DNA of 64,000 bases from Patescibacteria group bacterium (GCA_028716665.1 JAQUPP010000002.1:75717-139716), one strand, 5' to 3'. Counted from the stretch's first letter, positions 1 through 16,100 are shown. Notes: a model not told the origin generated them from the sequence alone. Program-made: numbers and translations.

Positions 1-2
1 TT

Positions 3-110
3 TTAAGAACAAAAGGAAAAATTTTAACCATTATTGTTTTAGCCGTTTTGATTGGCGGTTTTATCGTCTCTTTAATCATTAAATCAGACAGAAGCAGAAC
101 AAGTCCTTGA
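3..110 (+). CDS. C-terminal fragment of a hypothetical membrane protein (5' end outside the window)
   Basis: Open frame from the window edge to TGA at 108-110. Encodes a hydrophobic helix (LTIIVLAVLIGGFIVSLII). Confidence 0.25.
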   Translation, partial: LRTKGKILTIIVLAVLIGGFIVSLIIKSDRSRTSP

Positions 111-302
111 AGTTTTTAGTATTTCTGTTATAATATCTTGGTATCAAAATAGTGAAACTTTGGCCTGATACAGATGATTTTAAAGATTAAAAATCAAAAT
201 GGAAAATGACAGTGTAAAATTTAAAAATTCAATAAATAATTTTGACATTTTGAATTGTCATTTTAATTTTTGATATTTGCATTTTTAATTATAAAAATTA
301 CC

Positions 303-1853
303 ATGGAATCCGAACAAGACAAAATTAAAAAGAAAGAAATTGAAGATGAGGTTATTTTATTTGCGGAAACGAATTATCGCAGTAAAAGACAAAAATTTGG
401 CATTAGAACCGACGATCGGCGCCGGCATATGTATATTGTCGGAAAAACCGGCGTAGGTAAGTCAACAGTGCTGGAAAATATGATATATCAGGATATTATC
501 GCCGGACATGGCGTGGCGATTGTTGATCCTCATGGAGATTTGGCTGAAAAAGCATTGGAATTTATTCCGGCCAACCGTATTAATGATACGGTTTATTTTA
601 ATCCGGCAGATTATGAATTTCCGTTTGCTTTTAACGTTTTGGAAAGAGTGGAAACAGGGGAGCGGCATTTGGTCGCTTCGGGTTTGATTGGAATTTTTAA
701 GAAAATTTGGGCTGATTCTTGGGGTCCAAGATTGGAATATGTTTTAAGAAACGCCATTTTGGCGCTTTTGGAATATCCGGGCAGTACTTTGCTCGGAATT
801 ATGCGTATTTTGGTTGATAAAGAATTTCGCGGCAAAGTGGTTGACCAGTTAAGTGATCCGGTGGTTAAATCTTTTTGGTTGGATGAATATCCGAAATATC
901 CGGACCGTTTGAGATCTGAGGCTATTGCTCCAATTCAAAATAAAGTCGGACAATTTCTTTCCACGGCTTTAATCAGAAATATCGTCGGCCAGATAAAATC
1001 AAAAATTGACTTGAGACAAATAATGGACGAAAAGAAAATTTTAATAATGAATCTTTCTAAAGGCAGAATCGGAGAAGACGCTTCGTCTCTTTTGGGCGCG
1101 ATGATGATTACAAAAATCCAATTGGCGGCCATGAGCAGAATTAATATTCCTGAAATAGATCGTCATGATTTTTATCTTTATGTTGATGAATTTCAAAATT
1201 TTGCCACTGATTCTTTCGCCAATATTCTTTCTGAAGCCAGAAAATATCATCTTAACTTGGTTATTGCTCATCAATATATCGGTCAATTGGCCACTGAAAC
1301 TTCCAGTAAAGTGCGCGACGCCGTATTCGGCAATGTCGGCACAATGGTTATTTTCAGAGTTGGCGCCGAAGACGCGGAATTTTTAGCCAAAGAATTTGCT
1401 CCCCGTTTTGAAGAAACCGATTTGGTTGACTTGGACAAATATAATATTTATGTAAAATTGATGATCGACGGTATCACTTCTGAGCCATTTTCCGCCGCTA
1501 CTTTGCCTCCGCTTTCCATTTTGGAAGATAATAAAGAAAAAATTATAAAAGTTTCCCGAGAGCGCTATACCGAACCGAGAAAGCAAGTTGAAGAAAAAAT
1601 AATGCGTTGGAGTGGTGTTCTTGCCGCCGGCCAAAGTTTATCTCAAGAATCAAATGTTGATAAATATGAAGCCGTTTGCAATGGTTGCGGCAAAACCGTT
1701 TTTGTCCCGTTTGTTCCGGATGGCATCAGACCGATTTATTGCAAGGATTGCTTGAAGAAAAATCGTCAAGTTTTTCAGCCTCAATCTCAACCCCGAAATA
1801 ATGTTTCGTTTAATGAAGCGATTAAGCGAGGTCCAATACCTTTTAAAAAGTAA
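303..1853 (+). CDS. VirD4/TraG/TraD-like P-loop ATPase (type IV coupling-protein-like, DUF87/HerA-like) with a C-terminal Cys4 zinc ribbon
   Basis: Walker A (GKTGVGKST) and Walker B (YLYVDEFQNF). C-terminal CNGCGKT...YCKDC motif. The ORF track starts at TTG 270; ATG 303 (MESEQDK) is more plausible. Confidence 0.55.
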   Translation: MESEQDKIKKKEIEDEVILFAETNYRSKRQKFGIRTDDRRRHMYIVGKTGVGKSTVLENMIYQDIIAGHGVAIVDPHGDLAEKALEFIPANRINDTVYFNPADYEFPFAFNVLERVETGERHLVASGLIGIFKKIWADSWGPRLEYVLRNAILALLEYPGSTLLGIMRILVDKEFRGKVVDQLSDPVVKSFWLDEYPKYPDRLRSEAIAPIQNKVGQFLSTALIRNIVGQIKSKIDLRQIMDEKKILIMNLSKGRIGEDASSLLGAMMITKIQLAAMSRINIPEIDRHDFYLYVDEFQNFATDSFANILSEARKYHLNLVIAHQYIGQLATETSSKVRDAVFGNVGTMVIFRVGAEDAEFLAKEFAPRFEETDLVDLDKYNIYVKLMIDGITSEPFSAATLPPLSILEDNKEKIIKVSRERYTEPRKQVEEKIMRWSGVLAAGQSLSQESNVDKYEAVCNGCGKTVFVPFVPDGIRPIYCKDCLKKNRQVFQPQSQPRNNVSFNEAIKRGPIPFKK

Positions 1854-2111
1854 GAGAATATAATTTTATTACATGTCACTCTTCAATTGTTATTGATAGA
1901 TTTTTAGAAGCGGCTAAATTGGGTGCTTTTTTATTATCAAGCGAGTGAGAGAAAAGCAATTCCGCTAATGCGGATTGCTTTTTCGAGCGAGCGCAGATAT
2001 CAAAGGGTTTGATACTCCTCTGCCAGCTGGCAGATGTGAAACGGGGGTTTGGGGCGTGCTCCGGGGTTTAATACCCTTTATTTTTAAGTAATAATTAAAT
2101 AAAATAAATTT

Positions 2112-2615
2112 ATGGCGATTCCAAAACAAATTCTTTCTTATCTTGAGAAAAATAAAATTAAATATGAAGCAATTGAACATCGGCCGGTTTTTACGGCTTG
2201 GGATTTGGTTCAAACTTTGCATTTGAAAAAACCGGAGGAGGCGGTTAAGACATTGATTTTCAATATTGATAATGAGCATGTTTTGATTTTGCTTCCGCCG
2301 AATAAAAATTTTGACAAAGCCAAATTCAAAAATTTGATGAATGGTCTTCGCAAAAAACAAGGATTAAAAGGCGTTAAAAAAATGGATTTTGTCAAAGAAG
2401 TTTGGATGAAAAAGAATATTAAAATCGGTAAATTGGGAGCCGTGCCGCCATTTGGTAAATTATTGAATTTGCCGGTTTTTGCGGATAACATTGTTTTAAA
2501 ACAAAAGAAAGTTTTGGTCAGTGGCGGCGATCATAATGTGTCTCTTAAAATTTCCATTAAAGATTTTATTAAATTGGAAGAGCCGATTAAAGGCAGTTTT
2601 AGCCAGAAAAAATAA
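2112..2615 (+). CDS. YbaK/ProX-type aminoacyl-tRNA deacylase domain protein
   Basis: Length and motif layout (LEKNKIKYE, GAVPPFG, VLVSGGDHNVSL) match the YbaK/EbsC family. Confidence 0.6.
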   Translation: MAIPKQILSYLEKNKIKYEAIEHRPVFTAWDLVQTLHLKKPEEAVKTLIFNIDNEHVLILLPPNKNFDKAKFKNLMNGLRKKQGLKGVKKMDFVKEVWMKKNIKIGKLGAVPPFGKLLNLPVFADNIVLKQKKVLVSGGDHNVSLKISIKDFIKLEEPIKGSFSQKK

Positions 2616-2636
2616 AGGGCTTTGTTAAAATTTTCT

Positions 2637-3344
2637 ATGTATAATATTAAAGTTAATGAATTTGAAGGGCCATTTGATCTACTGCTTCGTTTGATTGAAA
2701 AGGAAAAAATGGATATTACCGACATTTCTTTAGCCAAAGTGACTGATGAATTCGTCACTTATTTAACCAATGCCATTGAAATAAATTGGGAAGAATTGGC
2801 TGATTTTTTGGATATTGCTTCCAAGCTTCTTTTGATTAAATCAAAATTATTAATTCCCGGTTCAATCTTAGAGGAGGAAGAAGGAGGGGATTTGGTCGGT
2901 CAATTGAAAATTTACAAAGAATTTCATAATGCTTCGCAGAAAATAGGAAAAATTATCGCCAAGGGTCATTACGCTTTTTATCGGGATAAAATTCCTTTAA
3001 ATATGATTCCTCAAACATCATTAAATACGAAAATAACGGTCAAAATGCTGGAAAGATCATTTAAAAATGTCATGGAAACGATTTTATTCCAGATAAAATT
3101 GGCGCAAAAAACCATCAAGCATCAGGTTATTTCCTTGAAACAAAAAATCAATGAATTATTTGAACTGGTTTCGTCCAGCCAAAGAGTTATTTTAAACAAT
3201 TTTATTGATCAAAAAGAAAAAATAGAAAAAGTGGTCATATTTTTGGCGCTTTTGGATTTGGTGAAAAGAAAAATGATTACTGTTGATCAGGAAGAATTGT
3301 TCAGTGAAATTATCATTACCAAAAAAGAACAGCAACAAGCTTAA
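2637..3344 (+). CDS. scpA: segregation and condensation protein A (kleisin)
   Basis: N-terminal EFEGPFDLLLRLIEKEKMDI signature. The ORF track uses TTG 2622; ATG 2637 is preferred. Confidence 0.8.
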   Translation: MYNIKVNEFEGPFDLLLRLIEKEKMDITDISLAKVTDEFVTYLTNAIEINWEELADFLDIASKLLLIKSKLLIPGSILEEEEGGDLVGQLKIYKEFHNASQKIGKIIAKGHYAFYRDKIPLNMIPQTSLNTKITVKMLERSFKNVMETILFQIKLAQKTIKHQVISLKQKINELFELVSSSQRVILNNFIDQKEKIEKVVIFLALLDLVKRKMITVDQEELFSEIIITKKEQQQA

Positions 3345-3365
3345 TAATATTAAAATCAAGCGAAT

Positions 3366-3968
3366 ATGTTAAAATCAACCATTGAAAGTTTAATTTTTAT
3401 CTCCAACCGTCCTTTAACCAAAAAGGAAATATCTGTTATTACTGAGGCAAAAATTGAAGAAGTCGGACAGGTTCTTGAAGAATTGGTTAAAGAATATAAT
3501 GAGAAAAATGGCGGGATAAAAATAATTCAAGACGGCAAGGAATTTCAAATGGTTACCAATCCGGATAATACAACAATTATTCAAAAATTTTTGAAAGAAG
3601 AAGTAACCAGAGAATTGACGCCGGCCTCGCTGGAAACATTGGCGATTGTCGCTTATCGAGGTCCGATCAGCAGGGGAGAATTAGAACAAATCAGAGGAGT
3701 CAATTGCGCGATTATTTTGCGAAATCTTTTAATCAGAGGCTTGATCATAGAAAGTGATGCTGATAAAGATTTATCAAGCAAAGATCCGTTGAAATGCGCT
3801 TATAATATAAGTTTGGATTTTATTCGCCATTTGGGCATTACGGATATTAAAGATTTGCCAAATTACGAAAAACTTAACAGTCAAATACCATTGCAAACTT
3901 TAGCCGGCGAAGAACAACTGAATAAAAATCCGGAGCCTCCGCAGGAGTCAAGTGAAGAAACTTTATAG
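3366..3968 (+). CDS. scpB: segregation and condensation protein B
   Basis: IESLIFIS...PLT at the N-terminus. Sits immediately downstream of scpA. Confidence 0.8.
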   Translation: MLKSTIESLIFISNRPLTKKEISVITEAKIEEVGQVLEELVKEYNEKNGGIKIIQDGKEFQMVTNPDNTTIIQKFLKEEVTRELTPASLETLAIVAYRGPISRGELEQIRGVNCAIILRNLLIRGLIIESDADKDLSSKDPLKCAYNISLDFIRHLGITDIKDLPNYEKLNSQIPLQTLAGEEQLNKNPEPPQESSEETL

Positions 3969-3990
3969 TTTTTAAGTAGAGAGCTATCAG

Positions 3991-4075
3991 CCCCTCACAT
4001 GAAAATTATTGTCTTTTCCGAGTGAGTGCGGGCGACACAGGAGATTAATAATTTTGATAATTTTCATGTGAGGGG
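3991..4075. repeat. Perfect 19-bp inverted repeat (cccctcacatgaaaattat ... ataattttcatgtgagggg) with a 47-nt loop, right after the scpB stop codon
   Basis: Read directly from the sequence. Confidence 0.8.
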
Positions 4076-4089
4076 CCCTCATAGTTTAA
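4075..4089 (+). repeat. 15-bp direct duplicate of the tRNA-Arg 5' end (gccctcatagtttaa). The bona fide tRNA begins with the same 15-mer at 4198.
   Basis: Exact identity between 4075-4089 and 4198-4212. The intervening 108 bp carries two small hairpins (ctccgac/gtcggag and cccgac/gtcggg). Confidence 0.7.
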
Positions 4090-4197
4090 CTCCGACGCCT
4101 TAAAGGGTCGGAGTCCCGACCTCCAGAGCGTCGGGGCGGATAGAAAAATTTATTTTTTTTAGTAATTAGTCATTAGTAATTTGTAATTTGTTTTTCC

Positions 4198-4269
4198 GCC
4201 CTCATAGTTTAATGGATAGAACGTAGCCCTCCGAAGGCTGAAATGCAGGTTCGATTCCTGCTGAGGGCA
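4198..4269 (+). tRNA. tRNA-Arg (anticodon CCG)
   Basis: Manual cloverleaf. Acceptor gccctca/tgagggc, D-arm tagtttaatggatagaac, anticodon loop ctCCGaa, T-loop ttcgatt. Confidence 0.75.
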
Positions 4270-4328
4270 TTTGAAAAAACCAGCCAAAGTCCTCGGCATG
4301 CCGATGGCGGAATTATTTAAATAATATT

Positions 4329-5486
4329 ATGGCTAGAAAATCATCAATTAAAAATCTTAAGAAAGCGAGAAAAGCAAAGAATGACGAGTTTTATACTCAG
4401 TATATTGATATTCAAAAAGAGATTGAAAAATACCTGGATTATAATTCTGATACTTTTCGCAGCAAGGCAGTGTATTGCAATTGCGACGATCCGTTTGAGA
4501 GCAATTTCTTTCGCTATTTCGTGCTCAATTTCAACAAGCTTGGATTAAAACAGCTCATTACTACGAGCTACAAGCCTTCGCCCGTAGCGAACACGCAGCT
4601 AGGGTTGTTTGGGGATGATAAAACTCTTACAAAATCAAAAAGCCTGCCTGCCGGTAGGCAGGGCCGTGCTAAAATAACCGCCAACAAATTTATTATCAAC
4701 GAAGTGCGTGATATAGACAACGATGGTGAGTTTAACTTGGAAGATATTGCCAAACAGTTAAAGGTAAACAAAAATAATGAATGGGCGCCATTAGAAGGTG
4801 ATGGTGATTTTCGTAGCGATGAATGTGTAGAACTACTCAAGCAATCCGATATAGTAGTAACCAACCCACCCTTTAGTTTGTTTCGTGAATATTTTAGACA
4901 ACTTTTTGATTATAAAAAAAAGTTTTTGATTATCGGCAATATCAACTGCCTAACCTATAGAGAAATATTTCAAAAAATTAAAGAAAATATAGCATGGCTT
5001 GGTAATGGAATGGGGAGATGGATTTCTGGATTTATTGTTCCCGAATCCTACGACTTATACGGATCAGAGGCTCGGATAGATAAAAATGGAAACAGAATTG
5101 TAGCCACCAATAATTGTTTATGGCTAACTAATCTTGATCACGGTCGCCGCCACCAGCCATTACCGCTTATGACAATGGAAGAAAATTTGAAATACAGCAA
5201 ACATAAAGAAATTAAAGGTAAAAAAGCGTATGATAAATATGACAATTATGATGCGATTGAAATACCTTTTACCGATGCAATTCCAAGCGATTATAAAGGC
5301 GTAATGGGTGTGCCAGTTACATTTCTTGATAAATATAATCCCAAACAGTTTGAAATATTGGGAAATTCTAATGTGCGAGGAGAGCGAGAACATTTAATGA
5401 ACAAGGTAAAATCCGCAACGGATTGTACTTATATAAACGGAAAACCGCAATATGCTCGTATATTAATAAAACATAAGAAAAAATAA
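4329..5486 (+). CDS. EcoRI-family N6-adenine DNA methyltransferase (possible orphan or system-associated)
   Basis: The N-terminus MARKSSIKNLKKARKAKNDEFYTQYIDIQKEI...VYCNCDDPFESNFF closely matches the M.EcoRI N-terminus as I recall it. Catalytic NPPF (VVTNPPFSLF) is present. GC content and codon usage differ from flanking genes. Confidence 0.7.
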   Translation: MARKSSIKNLKKARKAKNDEFYTQYIDIQKEIEKYLDYNSDTFRSKAVYCNCDDPFESNFFRYFVLNFNKLGLKQLITTSYKPSPVANTQLGLFGDDKTLTKSKSLPAGRQGRAKITANKFIINEVRDIDNDGEFNLEDIAKQLKVNKNNEWAPLEGDGDFRSDECVELLKQSDIVVTNPPFSLFREYFRQLFDYKKKFLIIGNINCLTYREIFQKIKENIAWLGNGMGRWISGFIVPESYDLYGSEARIDKNGNRIVATNNCLWLTNLDHGRRHQPLPLMTMEENLKYSKHKEIKGKKAYDKYDNYDAIEIPFTDAIPSDYKGVMGVPVTFLDKYNPKQFEILGNSNVRGEREHLMNKVKSATDCTYINGKPQYARILIKHKKK

Positions 5487-5510
5487 TTTTTTAAATTTTA
5501 ATTTTTTAAA

Positions 5511-7058
5511 ATGGAAATAGCACTACCAAATCAAATTTATGGTGATAAAAAAATCATAATAGATGACTCAAAATCTGTTTTTGTTTTTATTGGTGCTAAT
5601 GGCTCAGGCAAATCAAAACTAATGGATCAAATAAAGGCACATATGACACAACAAACGAAAATAATTTCTGATGGGATTAATTCAGTTCCTCCTATTAATA
5701 CCATTGATGAGGAGAGCGTAAAACAAAATTCTTGGGGGAATAAAGTAGTTGATAATGTCACAAGCCTTATAAATGGTAACGATACTGTTAGACAAGTTAT
5801 TTTCTTTTGGTTTAAAAAACTATTTGGCAAAGAAATTAGTAAAGAGGGCAATCAATATTGGATAACAGAAGACGGTAATAAATTTCAATTGAATGCAGAC
5901 GGCGACGGATATAAAACATTTTTTAATTTAGCTTATTATTTAACAACTCCAGATTATAAATATTTAATTTTTGATGAACCGGAAAGATTCTTGCATCCTA
6001 ATTTGCAGATAAGCTTGTTTAATATGATAAAAAAGCTATCAAGGGATTATGGGAAACAGGTTTTTATTACAACACATTCATCACATTTTATCGACTTTCT
6101 TTCTGACGGAATTGAAGTTTTTCTTCTTAGTAAGCCAAAAAAAGAAACCTTTAACTTAACAGAAAAAATTAATAGCTCATCCGATAAAAATTTTACGACA
6201 TGGATTCACTACAATAAACATATTTTATTTAGCAAAACCATTGTTTTATTGGAGGGGTACACTGATCAAATATTTTTAAATCAACTTTTACAAAAGTTGA
6301 ATCATTCTGTATTTGGAAGAAATATTTCCTTTATTTCCGTGGCAGTAGAAAAAGAAAACGGTGGTAAGTCAAAAATTGTAAAATTTCAAAAAATTATTTC
6401 AGAATTTTTTACTTGTTGGAGTTTATTTGACTTGGATCTTTTGCTAAATAGTGGTGGGGAATTAAGTAAGTATTTAGATGCAACGGATGTTACAGAATTT
6501 GGTACATGGAGAAATAGTAAAACTCTTGATGACTTATCAAATCTACTAGCTGAACAAGAAATGACAAAAGTTTTTAAAACATTAAAAGCCAAAAAAGTAT
6601 TAATTTTGGAAAAAGGTGCCATTGAGAAATATTGTAAAAAAATTGGTGTTGCTGATAAATTAAAAGATAAATTATATGAAGAAGTTGACTATCTAAATTC
6701 ACTCACACTTGATTTAGTTGAATCTGAATATGGAGACTTAATTAATATAATATCTAGTCTAGATGGATTTAATTTTGATGAAAATGATGATTTATCGAAT
6801 TTAGTTTTTAGATTGATAATGGACTTTGAAAAAGAGGCGAAAACTCTAAATCCATATCAATATTTAAAAATTCCAAAATCTATACAGGATCATTTATTTA
6901 GTGACCCAGACAAAGGAGCAAGTTATGAGTTTAGATTTAGATTTTTGAGCGATAAATTATTTTCCATTAAAAAAACTTTTTCAACGGACGAAAAAAAAGA
7001 TTATATAGATTCAGTGTTTTCAAGCTCCAGTATCAGCCAAAGATATTTACAAAGGTAA
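5511..7058 (+). CDS. OLD-family nuclease: ABC-type ATPase domain fused to a Toprim domain
   Basis: Walker A GANGSGKS. Walker B/D-loop YLIFDEPERFLHP. H-loop ITTHS. Toprim glutamate IVLLEGYTDQ and DxD (FDLDLL). Very AT-rich with different codon usage. Confidence 0.7.
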   Translation: MEIALPNQIYGDKKIIIDDSKSVFVFIGANGSGKSKLMDQIKAHMTQQTKIISDGINSVPPINTIDEESVKQNSWGNKVVDNVTSLINGNDTVRQVIFFWFKKLFGKEISKEGNQYWITEDGNKFQLNADGDGYKTFFNLAYYLTTPDYKYLIFDEPERFLHPNLQISLFNMIKKLSRDYGKQVFITTHSSHFIDFLSDGIEVFLLSKPKKETFNLTEKINSSSDKNFTTWIHYNKHILFSKTIVLLEGYTDQIFLNQLLQKLNHSVFGRNISFISVAVEKENGGKSKIVKFQKIISEFFTCWSLFDLDLLLNSGGELSKYLDATDVTEFGTWRNSKTLDDLSNLLAEQEMTKVFKTLKAKKVLILEKGAIEKYCKKIGVADKLKDKLYEEVDYLNSLTLDLVESEYGDLINIISSLDGFNFDENDDLSNLVFRLIMDFEKEAKTLNPYQYLKIPKSIQDHLFSDPDKGASYEFRFRFLSDKLFSIKKTFSTDEKKDYIDSVFSSSSISQRYLQR

Positions 7059-7100
7059 AAATTATTAATAGACAAGAAAAAAATAACCAAATTAAATAAT

Positions 7101-8267
7101 ATGAAAACTATTTTAAAAACCAACATCACCGTTAAAGATATTTGCGATGGGTTTGTTTATAACGAACTTGAAGGCAAGGGCTTATTTGGTTTGTCCGGCA
7201 AGTTGACTATTCAACCGGAGTATCAACGCAATTATATTTATGCGTCTGACGGCGGGAAAAGAGAGATGGCTGTTATTGAATCAATACTCAAAGGTTACCC
7301 AATAGGTTTAATTTATTTTAATAAAGTTAGCGAAGATAAACTGGAAGTTTTAGATGGACAACAGCGCATTACCAGTGTCGGACGTTTTATCACCGACAAA
7401 TTTGCAATCAAAGATGAAAATGGGATGCAATATTTCGGCGGTATGGCAAAAGACAAGAAAGCTAAGATTTTAGAAACAAAATTGCTTATTTATGAATGCG
7501 AAGGCACAGAAAGCCAAATAAAAGAGTGGTTTAAAACAATCAATATTGCCGGAGTACCGCTCGTCCCTCAAGAATTGTTAAACGCGATTTATTCCGGACT
7601 ATTCGTTACATTAGGCAAAGAGGAGTTCAGTAACAGCCAAAATGCTAATATTCAAAAATGGAGCGCGTATATAAAAGGCAGCGCAAACCGACAGGCATTT
7701 TTTGAGAGGGCATTGGACTGGGCGAGTAAGGGAAATATTGATGACTACATGAGCCTCCATCGCTATGATAAAAATATTATTGAGTTAAAAAAATATTTCA
7801 ATAGTGTGATTGACTGGGTCTCTAGCGTCTTCACCGATGTGGAAAGCGAGATGTGCGGACTTGAGTGGGGACGACTGTACGAGCAGTATCATAAGAAAGC
7901 TTATGACCCCAAAAAAGTGTCATCCGAAGTGCGTAAGCTCTATGGCGATCCATACCTCAAAAACCGTAAAGGTATTTTTGAATTTATTTTAGGAGGTTCT
8001 ACTGATACGAAATTGCTTGAGGTTAGAATTTTTGATGAAGCAACCAAAAAAGCAGTTTATGCGACACAAACTGCAAAAGCAGAGAAAAAAGGCGAATCAA
8101 ATTGCCCGCATTGCGCTATTGGACATGATGCCAACAAGAGTAAAATTTGGAGTTTAAACGATATGGATGCTGACCATGTAGCGGCTTGGAGTAAGGGTGG
8201 TAAAAGCGATATTAAGAATTGCCAAATGCTGTGCAAAACGCATAATCGAGCAAAAGGTAATCGGTAA
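7101..8267 (+). CDS. DUF262 (GmrSD/SspE N-terminal, ParB-like) domain fused to a C-terminal HNH endonuclease
   Basis: [11 protein letters not shown] and DGQQRITS motifs. C-terminal CPHC...[10 protein letters not shown]...[16 protein letters not shown] finger. Confidence 0.75.
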
Positions 8268-8279
8268 GAAAAATTAATT

Positions 8280-9608
8280 ATGTTAAAATCAATTCTTAAA
8301 AAAATTATTCCCAAAAAATTATTTATTTTTTATTACCAGTCTTTAGCTTTATTGGCTGCTTTTTTTTATAATCAGCCGAGCCAAAAAATGATTGTTATCG
8401 GCATAACCGGCACGGCCGGTAAGTCAACTGTGGTAAATTTGGTCGGTCGGATTTTGGAAAAAGCCGGCTATCAATGCGGTTGGGCGACAACTTTCAATTT
8501 TAAAGTGGGCCCAAAAGAGTGGATTAATAAGACAAAAATGACCATGCTTGGCCGTTTTGCTCTTCAAAAAATGCTTAAACAGATGCTCGCAGCAGGCTCT
8601 AAATACGCGATAATTGAGACTTCTTCAGAAGGAATCATCCAAAGTCGCCATTTGGGAATTAATTACGATGTGGCGGTTTTTACCAATCTCAGCCCGGAAC
8701 ATATTGAATCTCACGGCGGTTTTGATAAATATCGCCAGGCCAAACAAAAACTTTTTTATAATTTAACAAAAAAACATAAACGAATTAATGGTCGGACGAT
8801 TAAGAAGGTGATTGTTGCTAATTTGGATGACGAAAATGCGGAACATTTTTTAAAATTTCCGGCTGATGAAAAATATGGCTATACAATTAAGAATCTAGAA
8901 TCTAGAATTAAGAATTTAGAAGGATTAAAAGTTGTTAAAGCCGAAAATATCTGTTTGGATTCAAATAATTCTAAATTCCAAATTCTAAATTCCAAATTCA
9001 TAATTAATTTAGCCGGAGAGTTTAATGTTTATAATTCTTTGGCGGCGATTTGTGTTGCCTTATCTCAAGGAGTGAGTTTGGAAATTTGCCAAAAAGCGCT
9101 GGAAGAAATTGAACTAATGCCCGGCCGAATGGAAAAAATAATTACTCATCCGTTTGAAGTAATCGTTGATTATGCGCATACTCCGGAGAGCTTAGAGCAA
9201 GTTTATAAAACTCTTCAAAATTCCAAATTCCAAATTCCAAATTCCAAATTGATATGTGTGCTTGGCGCGGCCGGCGGGGGACGGGACAAATGGAAAAGAC
9301 CGAAATTGGGAGAACTGGCGGAAAAATATTGTGATCATATTATCATTACCAACGAAGATCCGTATAATGAAAATCCGGAAAAAATTATTGATGAAATAAT
9401 TTCCGGAATTAAAAATAAAAATCAAGATAAAATTTTAAAAATTATTGATCGGAGAGAGGCGATTAGAAAAGCTTTAAGTTTGGCCAAAGAAAAAGACGTG
9501 GTGGTGATAACAGGCAAGGGGTGCGAGCAGTGCATTATGGGTCAGAATAATACCAGGTTTTTTTGGGATGATAGAGAGGTGGCAAAAGAAGAATTTAATA
9601 AAATATAG
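8280..9608 (+). CDS. Mur ligase family protein (MurE-like UDP-MurNAc-tripeptide synthetase)
   Basis: P-loop IGITGTAGKST. Central and C-terminal Mur ligase layout (ETSSEGI..., VDYAHTP, ITNEDP). Contains in-frame heptamer repeat arrays. Confidence 0.6.
   Translation: MLKSILKKIIPKKLFIFYYQSLALLAAFFYNQPSQKMIVIGITGTAGKSTVVNLVGRILEKAGYQCGWATTFNFKVGPKEWINKTKMTMLGRFALQKMLKQMLAAGSKYAIIETSSEGIIQSRHLGINYDVAVFTNLSPEHIESHGGFDKYRQAKQKLFYNLTKKHKRINGRTIKKVIVANLDDENAEHFLKFPADEKYGYTIKNLESRIKNLEGLKVVKAENICLDSNNSKFQILNSKFIINLAGEFNVYNSLAAICVALSQGVSLEICQKALEEIELMPGRMEKIITHPFEVIVDYAHTPESLEQVYKTLQNSKFQIPNSKLICVLGAAGGGRDKWKRPKLGELAEKYCDHIIITNEDPYNENPEKIIDEIISGIKNKNQDKILKIIDRREAIRKALSLAKEKDVVVITGKGCEQCIMGQNNTRFFWDDREVAKEEFNKI
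8888..9003. repeat. Two inverted arrays of 4-6 tandem TTCYNRA heptamers inside the Mur ligase CDS (8888-8923 and 8967-9003)
   Basis: Read directly. The reverse complement of the first array equals the unit of the second. Confidence 0.8.
9219..9250 (+). repeat. Third tandem array (TTCCAAA x4) inside the Mur ligase CDS
   Basis: Read directly. Confidence 0.8.
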
Positions 9609-9697
9609 TTTTTTAAATTTGGGGGTAAACTGTGGAAAACCCAGATTTACCTTTATTTAAGCCAAAATAGGCGAGTTAAAAATATTTTATAATGGGT

Positions 9698-9732
9698 TGA
9701 CAAAAAACGGCTTATTTGCTATCATGTATAAG
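9698..9732 (+). promoter_or_regulatory. Sigma70-like promoter upstream of rpoB (TTGACA-17-TATCAT)
   Basis: Consensus hexamers with 17-nt spacing. Confidence 0.45.
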
Positions 9733-9873
9733 TATTAAAATAAATAGACCAATAATTTTGTATATTCGGTCAACTAAAATTTAGTAGAAATAAAAAGGTT
9801 CCTGACGCTAAAAGTAGCGGAAGGTAATTTTTCTGTATCCCGTTTTTATTTAATAATTTTTTTAAATTTTAAT

Positions 9874-12800
9874 ATGTCTCGTACTCCTAGAAAATATTTT
9901 TCAAAATCTCGTTTTAGTATAGGATTGCCGGATTTGATTCAGATACAAAAAGATTCTTATAAATGGTTTTTGGACAAAGGGATTAAAGAATTATTGCAAG
10001 AATTTTCGCCTATTGAAGATTTTGTCGGTAAAAATTTCGAATTGAAATTTTTGGATTATAAAATCGGCGAACCGAAGTTCGACGAAGTTACTTCTAAAAA
10101 TAGAAATTTGAATTACGAAGTGCCACTCAAAGTCAAAGTGCGATTAACCAGCAGGTTAACCGGAAAAAGGGTAGACCAAGAAGTTTATTTTGGAGACCTT
10201 CCACTGATGACCGATCGGGGCACTTTTATTATTAACGGAATTGAAAGAGTCATTGTTAAACAATTAATCAGATCGCCCGGCGTGTTTTTTGACACGGAAT
10301 TAGTCAAGGGGCGATTTTCTTATAAAACAAAAATTATTCCCGAGAGAGGAGCTTGGCTTGAATTTGAAATTGATCCTCATAAAATTATTTATGTCAGAAT
10401 TGATCGTCAGAGAAAAACTCCGGTTTCTTCTCTTTTGAGAGTTTTCGGCGTCGGTTCGGATCAGGAAATTTTAGATTTATTCACGCCGAAAAATTTACCC
10501 AAAACAAAAGAAGAAGTAAAAAAAGAAATTCCTTATCTTGATTATATCAGAGCAACCATAGAAAAAGATCCGTCGTCTTCCGAAGATGAAGGATTAATTG
10601 AAGTTTATCGAAAAATCAGACCCGGAGATTTGGCTACCGTGGATAATGCCCGCAGCTTGATCCACGCCATGTTTTTCAATCCTCATCGTTACGATTTAAG
10701 CAAAGTCGGACGTTTCAAAATAAATGAAAGATTTAATTTTTCCGACAAAGTTGATGAGCGCGTTGTTCGAGTTGAGGACTTGGTGAGAATTCTTAAAGAA
10801 TTGATTAAATTGGATTATCATCAATTGATTGCCGATGATATTGATCATTTGGCAAATCGAAGAATCAGAGCCGTAGGCGAGTTGGTTCAAAACAGAATCA
10901 GAGTGGGCTTATTAAGGCTTCAGCGCATTGTCAGAGACAGAATGAGTACTTTGGAAGGCAAGAATTTATTGCCCGGACAATTGATTAATGTCAGACCGAT
11001 TAGCGGAGTAATTCGCGAATTTTTCATGTCCAGTCAGTTATCTCAATTTATGGATCAAACCAATCCGCTTTCAGAATTGGAACATAAGCGCAGATTAACC
11101 GTGGCCGGTCCCGGCGGTTTAAGCCGAGACAGAGCCGGTTTTGAAGTGCGCGATGTGCATCGAACTTTTTATGGAAAAATTTGTCCAATTGCCACACCGG
11201 AAGGACCAAACGTCGGTTTAGTCGGACACTTGGCTTGCTATGCCCGACTTGATGAATACGGATTTATTGAAACGCCTTACCGCAAAGTGACAAACGGAGT
11301 TTTAACAAATCAAATTGTTTATTTGAATTCTTTAGATGAAGATCGACATACCACGGCTCCATTTTCCACTCAGTTTGATGAAAACGGAAGAATCGTTGAG
11401 CAAAAAGTGGAAGCAAGGGTTAACGGCCGTCCGGGTTTTAGCACAAGAGATAAAGTGGAATTTATCGATGTGGCGCCAAACCAAATTGTCAGTGTCGGCA
11501 CTTCATTGATTCCATTTTTGGAACACGACGATGGTGTCAGAGCCTTGATGGGAACAAACATGCAACGTCAGGCTGTTCCTTTAATCAGACCGGAAGCTCC
11601 GCTTGTCGGAACCGGTATTGAAGCTAATATTGCCAAGGATTCCGGTTATTTAATACAAGCTGATATGTCAGGCAAGGTAACAGAAGTTGACGGCAATCAT
11701 GTTAAAATTTCAAATAAAAGCGGTAAAACCAGAACTTATAATTTAATCAAATACGATCGCTCAAATTTTGATACTTGTATTAATCAAAAACCCGTAGTGG
11801 AAAAAGGACAAGAAGTTGAGCCGGGTGATATTTTAGTGGAAGGTTCGGCAATGGAAGACGGGGAATTGGCACTCGGTCATAATATTTTAGTGGCCTTTAT
11901 GTCTTGGGAAGGAGGCAATTATGAAGATGCTATTTTGTTATCTTCAAAATTGGTCCAGCAAGATAAATTCAGTTCAATTTATATTGACGAACATATTATT
12001 GAAGTTCGCGAAACAAAATTCGGTCCGGAAGTGATTACTCGCGACATACCGAATGTCAGTGAAGAAAAATTAAAAAATCTTGATGATGAAGGCATTGTCA
12101 GAATCGGCGCCGAAGTCAAATCAGGAGATATTTTAGTCGGTAAAATTACGCCAAAAGGCGAAATGGAATTATCGGCTGAAGAAAAACTTTTACGCGCTAT
12201 CTTTGGAGAAAAAGCCCGCGATGTTCGCGATACTTCTCTTTATCTTGAACACGGCGAACATGGAAAAGTAATCAGTATTAAAATATTCTCGCGTGATGCA
12301 GGAGACAAGCTTCCGCCAGGCGTAGTCAAATCAATTAAAGTTTTGGTTGCTGATTTGAGAAAAGCGCAAGTGGGAGACAAAATGGCAGGCCGACACGGAA
12401 ATAAAGGTGTAATTTCCAGAATTGTTCCTGAAGAAAATATGCCGTATTTGGAAGACGGCACGCCGGTTGATATTATTTTAAATCCGCTTGGCGTAGTTTC
12501 CAGAATGAATTTGGGACAAATCTTAGAAACACACATGGGCTTTGCCGCTCAAAAATTAGGTTATAAAGTGGCTACCCCGGCCTTTAATGGTATTAATGAA
12601 AAAACAATCAAAGAAGAATTGGTTAAAGCCGGTTATCCGGCCAGCGGAAAAATGACTCTTTATGATGGCCGCAATGGTTTAAAATTTGAAGAACCGGTAA
12701 CCGTCGGATATATTTACATGTTGAAATTAAATCACTTGGTTGAAGATAAAATTCATCAACGTTCAATCGGTCCTTATTCATTGATTACGCAGCAGCCACT

Positions 12801-13098
12801 CGGCGGACGAGCTCAATTCGGCGGACAGAGATTCGGTGAAATGGAAGTCTGGGCGCTTGAAGGTTATGGCGCGGCTCATTCGTTACAGGAAATGCTGACA
12901 ATCAAATCAGACGATGTACCCGGCCGAACCAAAGCTTATGAATCAATTATCAAAGGCGAACCGGTGAGAGAAGTTCACATCCCGGAATCTTTTAACGTTT
13001 TGGTAAACGAATTGAGAGGATTGGGATTGAGCGTGGAAATGTTAAGAGACGGTAAATGCGTAAATACCGAACCAAATAAACCGAATAAAAAATCATAA
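9874..13098 (+). CDS. rpoB: DNA-directed RNA polymerase subunit beta
   Basis: Full-length conserved beta subunit motifs throughout. Confidence 0.95.
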   Translation: MSRTPRKYFSKSRFSIGLPDLIQIQKDSYKWFLDKGIKELLQEFSPIEDFVGKNFELKFLDYKIGEPKFDEVTSKNRNLNYEVPLKVKVRLTSRLTGKRVDQEVYFGDLPLMTDRGTFIINGIERVIVKQLIRSPGVFFDTELVKGRFSYKTKIIPERGAWLEFEIDPHKIIYVRIDRQRKTPVSSLLRVFGVGSDQEILDLFTPKNLPKTKEEVKKEIPYLDYIRATIEKDPSSSEDEGLIEVYRKIRPGDLATVDNARSLIHAMFFNPHRYDLSKVGRFKINERFNFSDKVDERVVRVEDLVRILKELIKLDYHQLIADDIDHLANRRIRAVGELVQNRIRVGLLRLQRIVRDRMSTLEGKNLLPGQLINVRPISGVIREFFMSSQLSQFMDQTNPLSELEHKRRLTVAGPGGLSRDRAGFEVRDVHRTFYGKICPIATPEGPNVGLVGHLACYARLDEYGFIETPYRKVTNGVLTNQIVYLNSLDEDRHTTAPFSTQFDENGRIVEQKVEARVNGRPGFSTRDKVEFIDVAPNQIVSVGTSLIPFLEHDDGVRALMGTNMQRQAVPLIRPEAPLVGTGIEANIAKDSGYLIQADMSGKVTEVDGNHVKISNKSGKTRTYNLIKYDRSNFDTCINQKPVVEKGQEVEPGDILVEGSAMEDGELALGHNILVAFMSWEGGNYEDAILLSSKLVQQDKFSSIYIDEHIIEVRETKFGPEVITRDIPNVSEEKLKNLDDEGIVRIGAEVKSGDILVGKITPKGEMELSAEEKLLRAIFGEKARDVRDTSLYLEHGEHGKVISIKIFSRDAGDKLPPGVVKSIKVLVADLRKAQVGDKMAGRHGNKGVISRIVPEENMPYLEDGTPVDIILNPLGVVSRMNLGQILETHMGFAAQKLGYKVATPAFNGINEKTIKEELVKAGYPASGKMTLYDGRNGLKFEEPVTVGYIYMLKLNHLVEDKIHQRSIGPYSLITQQPLGGRAQFGGQRFGEMEVWALEGYGAAHSLQEMLTIKSDDVPGRTKAYESIIKGEPVREVHIPESFNVLVNELRGLGLSVEMLRDGKCVNTEPNKPNKKS

Positions 13099-13126
13099 TT
13101 AATTTTCATTTTATATTTTATTTTTT

Positions 13127-16100
13127 ATGTCTACTCCTTCAACAATTAGAACATTGTCTTTGCCGGATGAAAAGTTAAGGAAGAATTCTGATTTTGATTC
13201 TATCAGACTGAAAATCGCTTCACCTGAAGAAATACTTAATTGGTCTTATGGAGAAGTGATAAAACCTGAGACTATCAATTATAGAACCGAGAGACCGGAA
13301 CGAGACGGTTTGTTTTGCGAAAGAATTTTCGGTCCGACCAAAGATTGGCAATGCTCTTGCGGAAAATATAAAAAAATTCGCTATCGCGGAATTGTTTGTG
13401 ATCGATGCGGAGTGGAAGTAACCAGGTCAATCGTCAGAAGAGAAAGAATGGGACACATAAAATTGACCGTGCCGGTGACTCATATTTGGTTTTTGCGCGG
13501 CGTACCTTCAAAAATAGGATTGATTTTGGATATGTCCATTCAGTCTTTGGAAAAAGTGGTTTATTTCGCCAATTTCATTATTACTGAAGTTAAAGAAGAT
13601 TTAAAAAAAGCCACTCTTGATGAAATAGAACAAGAATATAAAGACAAAAAGAAACAAATTAAAAATGAATTGACAGGTGAAGAATTTAATAAAGAGACAG
13701 ATCGGCTCAAAGCTTTATACGATGAAACAAAAAAAGAAATAAACAGTATTCATATTAAAAATTTATTAACCGAACCGCAATACAGAGATTTATCTTTAAA
13801 ATACGGACATTTTTTTGAAGTTGGCATTGGCGCTGATGCGGTCTCAAAACTTCTTCAAAATGTTGATTTGTTGAAATTGATCAAAGATTTGGAAAAAGAA
13901 ATAAAACACACCATTAATCTTTTGAAAAGACAAAAATTGATCAAAAGATTGAAATATATTAAAAATTTTCATAACAACAAACTCAAGCCGGAGAATATGG
14001 TTTTGACCGTTATTCCGGTTATTCCGCCTGATTTGCGCCCGCTCGTTCAACTTGACGGAGGCAGATTCGCTTCTTCCGACTTGAATGATTTATACAGAAG
14101 GGTTATTAATCGCAATAACAGATTGAAACGTTTGCACGAACTCAATGCGCCGGAAGTAATTTTACGAAATGAAAAAAGAATGCTTCAAGAAGCAGTTGAT
14201 TCTTTAATGGATAATGATATGCGAAGCGGAAAAACAGTGGTTGCTTCCACTGGTCAGCAAAGACCGTTAAAATCTTTAGCTGATATTTTGAAAGGCAAAC
14301 AAGGAAGGTTTCGTCAAAATCTTTTGGGAAAAAGAGTTGATTATTCCGGACGTTCAGTTATCGTTGTCGGTCCGAAATTGAAACTTTATCAATGCGGTTT
14401 GCCAAAAACAATGGCTATCGAACTTTTCAAACCGTTTATTGCCTGCGAACTTATTAAAAGGGGATTGGTTCACAATGTCCGCAGCGCCAATCGCTTGATA
14501 GAACAGGGGACGGAAGATGTTTGGGCTATTTTGGAAACAATTATTCAAACCGCTTATGTATTATTAAACCGCGCGCCAACCTTGCATCGTTTGGGCGTTC
14601 AAGCTTTTCAGCCGGTTCTGATAGAAGGAAAAGCAATTCAAATTCATCCTTTGGTTTGCGCCGCTTTTAATGCTGACTTTGACGGAGATCAAATGGCTGT
14701 TCATATTCCTATTACTGAAGAAGCGCGCCGAGAAGCCAAGGAAATTTTATTATCATCTAAAAATCTTTTAAAACCCGCAACCGGAGAACCGATTATTATT
14801 CCGGCCAAAGATATGGTTTGGGGAGCTTATTGGATGACGACATTGGAGAAAAAAGAAAAACAAGAAATGAAATTTTTCTCTTCTCAAAATGAAGCTGAGT
14901 TGGCTTATAAATTGGGCAAGGTCAGTTTGCGTCAGATTATTAAAGCAAGAGTGCTTGATCCTTCAAATAATAAAGATATAAAAATATTGGAAACCAGTGT
15001 TGGAAGATTGATTTTTAATTCCATTTTACCTGTTGGGCTTTATAAAATGGACAAAGTAGTGGATAAAAATAAATTAAAACAAATCATTGAAGATTGTTTG
15101 GAAATTTACGACGAAGAAACGACAGTCACGATGCTTGATAAAATAAAAGAAACTACTTTTTCTTATTTAACCACTTCCGGTCTTTCTTGGGGGATGGATG
15201 ATTTACCGACTCTTGAAGGAAAAGATAAAATTATCAAAGAAGCGGAGAAAAAAGTGGATGAAGTCCAGGATCAATTCAATATGGGTCTTTTAACCGAAGA
15301 AGAACGGTATCAGAAAAGCGTTGCCGTTTGGTTAAGCGCCAAAGATGTTATCGTTGATCTTTGTAAAAAATCTTTATCTTACACAAATACGGTTATTTCC
15401 ATGGTTAACTCCGGAGCAAGAGGTTCTTGGGCGCAGTTAGCTCAGATGTTCGGTACAAAAGGTATTGTTTCTTCGCCAACCGGAAGATTGATTGAATTGC
15501 CCATTAAATCTTCTTTTAAAGAAGGGTTTAATGTTTTGGAATTCTTCATCGCCACTCATGGTTCAAGAAAAGGTGTTTCTGATACGGCTTTGAGAACCGC
15601 CAGTGCCGGTTATCTTACTCGAAGAATGGTTGATGTTTGTCAAGATATATTAATTAATGAAGAAGATTGCGGAGACAAAGAAGGATTTAAAATAACCAGA
15701 GAAGATAATAAAATAATGGGTGAAACATGGGAGGCCAGATTATTAGGCCGAACTTCATTGGTAGAAATTAAAGATCCGAAAACAGGTAAGGTTGTCGTTA
15801 AAGCCAATGAAATTGTTACCAGAGATATTGCCAAAAAAATTAATGAAATTGATCCGGAAGAATTTATTATTCGTTCGGTTTTGACTTGCAAAAGCGACAA
15901 AGGAATATGCGCCAAGTGTTATGGTTATGATTTAGGTTTTAATAAACCGGTTAAACTTGGTGTTCCGGTCGGTATTGTGGCCGCTCAATCCATTGGTGAA
16001 CCTGGTACGCAGCTTACCTTAAGAACCTTCCATACGGGAGGTATTGCCGGTAAAGATATTACCCAAGGTTTGCCGAGAGTTGAAGAACTTTTTGAAGCCA

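Follow-up and report, generated by a model that had tools for sequence, protein, structure and literature searches.

Introduction

In the loci of Hma, BREX, DISARM and type I restriction-modification (R-M) systems, embedded genes are usually defence genes themselves, a rule described as 'guilt-by-embedding' (Payne et al., bioRxiv 10.1101/2024.01.29.577857), and embedded PrrC and restriction-linked open reading frames (ORFs) have been described in type I R-M loci (Anantharaman et al. 2013, PMC3710099). HEC-04, a single protein that joins an ABC ATPase to a Toprim domain, was shown to defend alone (bioRxiv 10.1101/2024.01.29.577857). Here we describe an island found in a stretch of 64,000 nucleotides (nt) from a Patescibacteria group bacterium (GCA_028716665.1, JAQUPP010000002.1:75717-139716; hereafter the window). 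The island carries three intact, co-directional ORFs on the + strand, exactly where the initial annotation of this DNA had placed them, in the order of an EcoRI-family adenine methyltransferase gene (M), an OLD-family nuclease gene (OLD) and a gene for a DUF262-HNH nuclease (R). The three genes had been proposed to form a candidate undescribed defence module. Our analysis points to a different arrangement, since the island is probably a two-gene R-M pair, made up of M and R, with an independent single-gene OLD nuclease nested at the M/R junction.

The arrangement resembles the described embedded-gene systems in that an accessory defence or toxin gene is nested in a host system, with variable occupancy and with solo occurrence elsewhere, and in a shared repertoire that comprises RhuM, Fic/Doc, HEPN, PIN, ABC-ATPase nucleases (including OLD-like ones) and Shedu. 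It differs from them in its host, which is a minimal two-gene M-R pair and not a system of three to eight genes, and in the apparent insertion at a single, sequence-conserved stop/start junction (AAGAAAAAATAA-T-ATG) that is empty in the phage and plasmid copies of the pair. The embedded protein has described counterparts as well. Like the class 1 OLD proteins (P2 Old; Thermus scotoductus OLD, PDB 6P74) and HEC-04, it fuses an ABC ATPase to a Toprim domain with the catalytic E and DxD and is encoded by a single gene without a helicase; unlike class 1 OLD, it is short (515 amino acids, aa), belongs to a rare subfamily and shows weak sequence similarity to 6P74 (E = 0.004).

The host pair is reminiscent of type II R-M systems, because M and R are monofunctional and stand in tandem, M belongs over its full length to the M.EcoRI Pfam family and R carries a canonical HNH finger. 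HNH endonucleases are found in type II R-M systems such as KpnI, Hpy99I and PacI. In contrast to the M.EcoRI system, no EcoRI-like PD-(D/E)xK nuclease is present at the island, and to our knowledge a ParB/GmrS-type NTPase domain such as that of R occurs in no characterised type II enzyme. With GmrSD, BrxU and SspE, R shares the QR, DGQQR and F..N motifs of DUF262, a helical middle and a C-terminal His-Me finger, but it is about 200 aa shorter than these proteins, has a PF01844 HNH in place of DUF1524 and is almost always linked to a methyltransferase. Of the features of a GmrSD-family type IV enzyme, R has DUF262 with DGQQR but not DUF1524 or the stand-alone occurrence.

The Menshen system consists of NsnA (DUF262 + ParBDB), NsnB (ABC ATPase + DUF3696) and NsnC (inactive PIN + nuclease) (PMC12065111). 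As in Menshen, a DUF262 protein adjoins an OLD-type ABC ATPase in the island; unlike in Menshen, the ATPase has its own Toprim domain, the DUF262 protein has its own HNH, and OLD and R do not co-occur in relatives. An assignment to Menshen failed, since neither an NsnC-like gene nor DUF3696 was found and the matches cover only residues 33-184 (NsnA) and 123-196 (NsnB). Septu (PtuAB), in which a PtuA ATPase works with a small HNH nuclease, PtuB, was rejected as well, with a partial PtuA match for OLD (2e-12) and no PtuB among the 13 PADLOC matches of R. PARIS combines an ABC ATPase (AriA) with a DUF4435-type Toprim protein (AriB), either separate or fused; its models gave partial matches to OLD (AriA, 1.3e-19; fused AriAB, 6e-16) that rank below the PADLOC Old model (1.9e-22), and a PARIS reading of the OLD and DUF262-HNH neighbours seems less likely, as components are missing.

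The methyltransferase and its partner nuclease

The M gene (4329..5486, + strand) encodes a protein of 385 aa that belongs to the EcoRI-family gamma-class (NPPF) N6-adenine DNA methyltransferases. It matches Pfam EcoRI_methylase (PF13651) with 5.5e-128 over positions 1-345 of the 345 in the profile, and PADLOC MTase_II with 3.4e-114; the full coverage together with the NPPF motif identifies M as a separate methyltransferase with complete catalytic motifs. The R gene (7101..8267, + strand) encodes 388 aa, organised into a DUF262 domain (ParB/GmrS-like NTPase), a helical middle and a canonical HNH. Pfam searches detected GmrSD_N (DUF262; 1.8e-20) and HNH (1e-6), assigned the C-terminus to PF01844 HNH and HNH_5 and gave no match to DUF1524. 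In PADLOC, R falls into a curated, REBASE-derived family of type II endonucleases (REase_II, PDLC03418; 4.4e-79), the match extending over residues 4-387 of the protein and 3-371 of the 372 profile positions. The QR, DGQQR (D85-G86-Q87-Q88-R89) and F..N motifs are invariant among relatives, as are the HNH residues CxxC...DH...N...HN. The intact NTPase motifs of DUF262 suggest that R may require a nucleoside triphosphate (NTP), which would be atypical for type II enzymes. NCBIfam held nothing specific for the M, OLD or R proteins. Taken together with the OLD profile matches given below, these searches supported every domain assignment of the initial annotation, and all motifs it had quoted are present in the translations.

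R has over 8000 homologs. Among the matches listed, the best 120 share 89-100% identity and represent numerous lineages of the candidate phyla radiation as well as others outside it. A species-level set, with one representative genome per species, contained at least 573 loci with an R relative, and the best 80 by R identity were examined. They span Patescibacteria, Elusimicrobiota, Omnitrophota, Chloroflexota, Proteobacteria, Bacteroidota, Planctomycetota and Bacilli. An EcoRI-family M lies upstream of R in 79 of 86 loci, and these M homologs are 46-94% identical to M of the window. The two genes are at most 30 nt apart in 38 of the 79 loci; gaps of 31-250 nt (14 loci) are mostly due to divergent M C-termini, and gaps above 250 nt were found in the other 27. 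At the usual M/R junction, AAGAAAAAATAA-T-ATGAAAACA, a stop codon is followed by one base and the start codon (ATG). Even in a gut clade in which R is only 36% identical, an EcoRI-family M still precedes R, with a 4-nt overlap.

The pair is also present on mobile elements, namely on plasmids of cultured bacteria (among them Enterococcus faecium, Leuconostoc, Moraxella, Arthrobacter and Rhodococcus), on the Flavobacterium phage laban6-1 and on IMG/VR contigs. Cultured carriers include E. faecium BN83 (plasmid pBN83-1), Leuconostoc mesenteroides F-22 and Moraxella osloensis (plasmid AP031478). M stands directly before R in 22 of 24 plasmid, phage and IMG/VR copies, the remaining two being without upstream sequence. 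The M-R pair is spread over more than 10 phyla, plus plasmids and phages. From this linkage it follows that the methyltransferase is not an orphan and that its partner is the DUF262-HNH protein. The initial annotation had seen a methyltransferase without an endonuclease partner, a view that can no longer be held in light of the 79 loci, the plasmid and phage copies and the REase_II match of R. An endonuclease gene is thus conserved beside the methyltransferase across genomes, with a single locus (L011, see below) as the exception, and M and R are conserved partners in a very widespread pair that is probably an R-M system.

The R protein is under very strong purifying selection along its whole length, which is unusual for a restriction endonuclease, and M is less constrained. 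In the alignments of loci L001-L086, R keeps a median of 83% amino-acid identity across phyla as compared with 41% identity at 4-fold degenerate sites, and M reaches 68%. Among loci chosen by R identity, M varies in patches (residues 100-120, 220-260 and 340-380). A type III-like scheme, with a constant R and M alleles of differing specificity, is not claimed here, because sampling by R identity biases this contrast. The guanine plus cytosine (GC) content of M and R stays within 0.30-0.48, in hosts with flanks of 0.27 to 0.55.

Five loci (L016, L025, L010, L072 and L017) have in common a conserved leader of about 85 nt upstream of M (ggtataaggtgttttctccgctccgctacgaaaacgatttatttataaggggaaaacgaatacaat...), which could be a promoter or regulatory region of the M-R pair. 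The window is without it, and the leader of the island (4280..4328) differs from it. A search for the recognition site by palindrome avoidance over the 64-kb window found that GAATTC, AATT and CAATTG are not avoided. The most avoided palindrome in the window is TCGA (64 observed against 144 expected, ratio 0.44), followed by GGCC; nothing connects the avoidance of either to the M-R pair or to the other island enzyme.

The embedded OLD-family nuclease

Between M and R lies OLD (5511..7058, + strand), an intact ORF for an OLD-family ABC-ATPase/Toprim nuclease of 515 aa that is class-1-like, that is, of the stand-alone type. The protein matches Pfam AAA_21 (1.5e-18), AAA_15 (7e-14) and OLD-like_TOPRIM (PF20469; 2.7e-8, 34.7 bits against a cut-off of 23.2), and its best PADLOC model is Old. 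In 11 relatives there is no variation at residues G28-N30-G33-K34, E156-P157-E158-R159 and T188-H189, which represent the Walker A, Walker B and H-loop motifs of an ABC-type ATPase, and the catalytic Glu and DxD of the Toprim domain (E248, D307 and D309) are likewise invariant among relatives. The AlphaFold2 model (75.6 in pLDDT, the predicted local distance difference test) has Thermus OLD (6p74) and GajA as its best folds (E ~1e-7). No UvrD/GajB-type helicase was found beside OLD in 1-14000, the neighbours being M, R, tRNA-Arg and a Mur ligase gene. Gabija and other class 2 OLD systems were excluded on this ground, and the missing helicase partner makes OLD resemble the stand-alone class 1 type.

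Within the island the genes are closely packed, with spacers of 24 nt (M-OLD), 42 nt (OLD-R) and 12 nt (R to the next gene), and the tRNA-Arg gene ends 59 nt before M. The operon-like packing that had been noted is thus real; the earlier spacer values of 42 and 12 nt were reproduced, and the 25 nt given for M-OLD has to be corrected by one. OLD stands apart in composition. Its GC content is 0.282 as compared with a window mean of 0.355, and its GC content at third codon positions (GC3) is 0.203 versus 0.33-0.38 for M and R. For M the GC content (0.358) is the same as the mean of the window and for R (0.389) it is slightly higher, so that the annotation was right about an AT-rich OLD gene and mistaken about a GC-rich M gene.

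The distribution of OLD relatives differs from that of the pair. None of the 80 species-level R loci contains an ortholog of the window's OLD, and the subfamily is rare, with 15 relatives detected in a word-indexed search. The closest of them (L087) encodes an 87% identical protein; it lies 3' of an EcoRI-family M with no more than 63% identity to M of the window, and no R comes after it. At the DNA level, the two OLD genes are 80-93% identical, and this identity falls to 40-80% exactly at the M stop codon, which indicates one OLD cassette in two different M backgrounds. On the other side the homology stops about 40 nt short of the OLD stop codon. Five further loci encode OLD relatives of 48-50% identity as solitary genes in unrelated contexts, with neither M nor R, and the embedded gene is thus also found outside the host system. 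OLD therefore behaves like a cargo cassette of different origin that would have become embedded between M and R.

A variable slot between M and R

The position taken by OLD in the window is filled in many other members of the family. In 27 of the 79 loci (gap >250 nt) the slot is occupied by one to three co-directional ORFs, which form 23 sequence clusters, as against the 38 loci in which M and R abut; occupancy of the nested position is thus variable among homologous host loci, with extra genes in roughly one third of the chromosomal copies. According to Pfam and PADLOC, the slot families include RhuM (nine loci in all), T5orf172 and Bro-N (four each), Fic and DUF2130 (three each), as well as AntA, HEPN_AbiU2 and PIN_8. 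The slot also contained two more proteins of the OLD family (L053 and L085) that are unrelated to the one in the window, a C5-methylase accompanied by a GHKL ATPase, and a PD-Lambda-5-like gene accompanied by a Dam-type methylase. In loci whose examined sequence contains no M, the position directly 5' of R is taken by Shedu SduA or by a PrrC/RloC-type AAA_13 ATPase together with DUF2130. About ten slot families have no Pfam or PADLOC match. No clear cargo was seen where the pair sits on phages, plasmids and IMG/VR contigs, and a 497-nt gap in L187 is the only large one among them. In this R-M family the M/R junction thus behaves as a recurrent slot for accessory genes with putative roles in defence or as toxins.

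The trio of M, OLD and R was detected in no other locus examined, and the slot holds more than 20 unrelated families. The proposed three-gene module is not compatible with these data; lack of co-localisation in relatives, which the initial annotation itself had equated with a chance juxtaposition, is what we observed for the trio. Its fallback of a methyltransferase beside unrelated nucleases came closer, except that M and R belong together and OLD alone is the guest.

A repeat search matched the M 3' end (ATTAATAAAACATAAGAAAAAATAA; 5462..5486, + strand) to an imperfect copy just past the OLD stop codon (ATTATTAATAGACAAGAAAAAAATAA; 7061..7086, + strand), which may represent a trace left when cargo entered the M/R junction. 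In a permutation-style test, this match beats random 60-nt windows with p = 0.013, and p < 0.05 was reached in 9 of 24 cargo-bearing loci. The window also has ATAAT|ATG just 5' of R, as do loci in which M abuts R. The copy is suggestive of an insertion of cargo at the M/R junction but is not a proof of it.

Genes of the cargo type were also observed immediately 5' of M, joined to it by an equally tight AAATAA-nn-ATG junction, namely T5orf172 (L070) and small helix-turn-helix proteins (L020 and L080). The M/R slot may thus not be the sole docking point.

Proposed function and alternative explanations

According to the model that we favour, M would mark adenines of the host DNA, and R, as the predicted cognate endonuclease, would cut unmarked DNA and be blocked by M methylation. 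The ParB/GmrS-like NTPase domain of R probably gates or licenses the HNH cut by way of NTP control, so that R is probably not a type II enzyme of the simple Mg-only kind. OLD, in which the ABC ATPase would control the Toprim nuclease, is expected to work alone, as its stand-alone relatives must, and would have arrived as a cassette inserted at the M/R junction. A role of OLD in phage defence and a co-transcription of the three genes are both predicted from the gene content and layout.

Several points weigh against a modification-blocked R-M pair with an independent guest. In L011 (484-5623), a RhuM gene and R follow housekeeping-type genes (UbiD, radical SAM), and no EcoRI-family M was found up to 4.4 kb upstream or elsewhere in the 9.3-kb contig, so that R can exist without M in cis. 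The occupancy figures are biased, because the best 80 loci were selected by R identity. The AlphaFold2 model of R is of moderate quality (pLDDT 69.6), and neither the R sequence nor an R profile returned anything meaningful when compared with PDB sequences, BrxU appearing only at E = 1. Our literature search found no study that characterises the R family or a system of an EcoRI-family M with a DUF262-HNH protein, and the characterised DUF262 nucleases GmrSD, BrxU and SspE are all modification-dependent or modification-sensing, not modification-blocked. Moreover, OLD-family genes are found in the slot of 3 of about 28 occupied loci and represent three different subfamilies; this recurrence, together with the M-OLD adjacency kept in L087, could hint at more than coincidence.

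A more ambitious version of the R-M pair with embedded cargo would see the M/R stop/start junction as a dedicated docking site for defence cassettes. The ends of the cargo would copy the M 3' end, the post-segregational toxicity of the pair would shield the slot from deletion, OLD would be wired to the pair as a back-up triggered by inhibition of the R-M layer, and R would represent a new class, with an NTP-gated ParB-like clamp and HNH acting beside a type II-style methyltransferase. We regard this combined proposal as speculative and would not expect it to hold as a whole, though it has some chance of doing so.

Among the competing explanations, a coupling of the PrrC/EcoprrI type survives best, even if we consider it rather unlikely. 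OLD would then be silenced by the M-R pair or would monitor it, and would fire when a phage anti-restriction protein disables the pair; RhuM, Fic, PIN, HEPN and AAA_13 would act alike. The precedent is PrrC, which is kept inactive by EcoprrI and is released by the Stp peptide of T4, and the slot repertoire is the same as that of type I R-M operons (PMC3710099). That three unrelated OLD subfamilies and a PrrC/RloC-type AAA_13 ATPase are found in the slot, that M and OLD have stayed adjacent in L087, and that the gaps between M, OLD and R are tight and free of + strand terminators would all fit such a coupling. Yet the OLD family does not need the partner, as seen from the five loci with ~50%-identical relatives that have neither M nor R; the pair itself occurs on phages, plasmids and IMG/VR contigs without cargo; and a slot that serves as a deletion-protected harbour can account for the co-location as well.

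We consider it improbable, more so than the coupling, that R is a modification-sensing enzyme like SspE or GmrSD/BrxU, which would need the N6-methyladenine set by M for its activity or would attack modified DNA of foreign origin, M then having some other task. All three DUF262 motifs are present in R, and comparison of its model with the PDB ranks the type IV enzyme BrxU (7p9k) first, ahead of ParB CTPase domains and the Gme HNH nickase. A reliance on host marks has a precedent in SspE, which depends on the host's own phosphorothioate marks (PMC12065111). The strong purifying selection on R, with near-saturated 4-fold sites, would fit a sensor with many constrained surfaces, and L011 has R with no M nearby. 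What argues for a modification-blocked R instead is the near-universal order of M then R with a 1-nt spacer or an overlapping stop/start, a classic sign of a toxin-like R that needs a protective M, besides the placement of R among type II endonucleases by REBASE-derived PADLOC models and a nuclease domain that is the canonical PF01844 HNH and not the DUF1524 of the GmrSD family.

A three-component system, in which M would mark self while OLD and the DUF262-HNH protein form one ATP-dependent two-nuclease restriction complex, is suggested by three co-directional genes with gaps of 24 and 42 nt and by the ABC-ATPase/DUF262 pairing of Menshen (partial PADLOC matches of R to NsnA, 3e-24, and of OLD to NsnB, 1.3e-13), but is highly improbable given that the trio exists only in this genome among all loci examined, that the pair lacks OLD at most loci and on phages and plasmids, that OLD differs in composition and shows a recombination boundary at the M stop codon, that its relatives are solitary, and that NsnC and the DUF3696 tail of NsnB are missing.

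The region is not a new system but a combination of known kinds, an R-M pair and an embedded single-gene defence, with R as the unusual member; M, OLD and DUF262-HNH together would be a chance combination of two known module kinds. M and the DUF262-HNH nuclease are among the most conserved and most widely transferred R-M pairs found, and a ParB-type NTPase in a restriction enzyme that is paired with a type II-style methylase would, if true, be mechanistically new. The use of the M/R junction as a cargo slot would extend 'guilt by embedding' to a two-gene system and may offer a compact route to new defence genes.

The insertion site at tRNA-Arg

The island was acquired horizontally beside tRNA-Arg and is strain-variable, as the initial annotation had supposed and as is directly confirmed by empty sites. 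A metagenome scan with the downstream Mur ligase identified sister strains whose flanking proteins are 87-98% identical to those of the window. In two of them (L168 and L101) the gene order is ScpB, tRNA-Arg and, after 15 nt, the ATG of the Mur ligase gene, with M, OLD and R missing; the 4-kb block is therefore an insertion. The tRNA-Arg(CCG) gene (4198..4269, + strand; detected by ARAGORN, Rfam tRNA 69.5 bits) has 100% identical copies in both empty-site contigs.

Alignment of both junctions with the empty sites places the island at 4280-8274 (3,995 bp), beginning 10 nt past the tRNA-Arg(CCG) 3' end. It is flanked on the + strand by the two copies of a 7-nt imperfect direct repeat, GAAAAAA on the left (4273..4279) and GAAAAAT on the right (8268..8274), the latter followed by the native TAATT and the Mur ligase start codon (ATG). 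At this position the empty site contains only one such element, GAAAGAT; it reads GGGCA CTTGAAAGAT TAATTATG, as compared with GGGCA TTTGAAAAAA|CCAGCC on the left side of the window. The leader of the island 5' of M (4280..4328, + strand; 49 nt) contains a small GC-rich palindrome and is missing from the empty-site contigs. A promoter scan was uninformative (17 sites against 18 expected).

Another strain (L100) carries a different 2.1-kb insert that starts at the same point as the left boundary of the island, which makes the tRNA-Arg/Mur site a hotspot. This insert (450-2540) encodes three tandem near-identical membrane peptides of ~100 aa and a 363-aa radical-SAM protein, and it looks like a peptide-maturation cluster. 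The island of the window illustrates how candidate-phyla-radiation bacteria, with their very small genomes, can pack several putative defences into 4 kb at a tRNA hotspot. L099 (6825-6935) and L100 have a variant tRNA-Arg that is followed by a remnant of the original tRNA 3' end.

The partial duplication of the tRNA 5' end, which had been read as a sign of how the three genes arrived, is real (4075-4089 = 4198-4212, 15 nt) but borders another insert, 108 nt long (4090-4197), that lies within the 5' end of tRNA-Arg. This insert is not present in the sister strains L168 and L101; the duplication belongs to it and is uninformative on the arrival of the three genes. The insert has its own GC-rich hairpin and an AT-rich tail, the flanking 15-nt duplication restores the tRNA, and the whole resembles a miniature mobile element.

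The spacer between ScpB and tRNA-Arg (3975-4200) is strongly structured (minimum free energy -84.2 kcal/mol, z = -7.5) and contains a perfect 20-bp hairpin (arms 3990-4009 / 4057-4076), the 3' arm of which leads straight into the tRNA in the sister strains. An Rfam scan of the region upstream of the tRNA matched the tRNA alone and gave no match for this spacer. On the other side of the island, the Mur ligase gene contains an in-frame 36-nt imperfect inverted repeat of GAATCTAGAAT / GAATTAAGAAT units (8882-8999), which encodes the repeated peptides IKNLESRIKNLE and NSKFQI, recurs with variations in the L100 ortholog and may be a palindromic element that keeps the reading frame.

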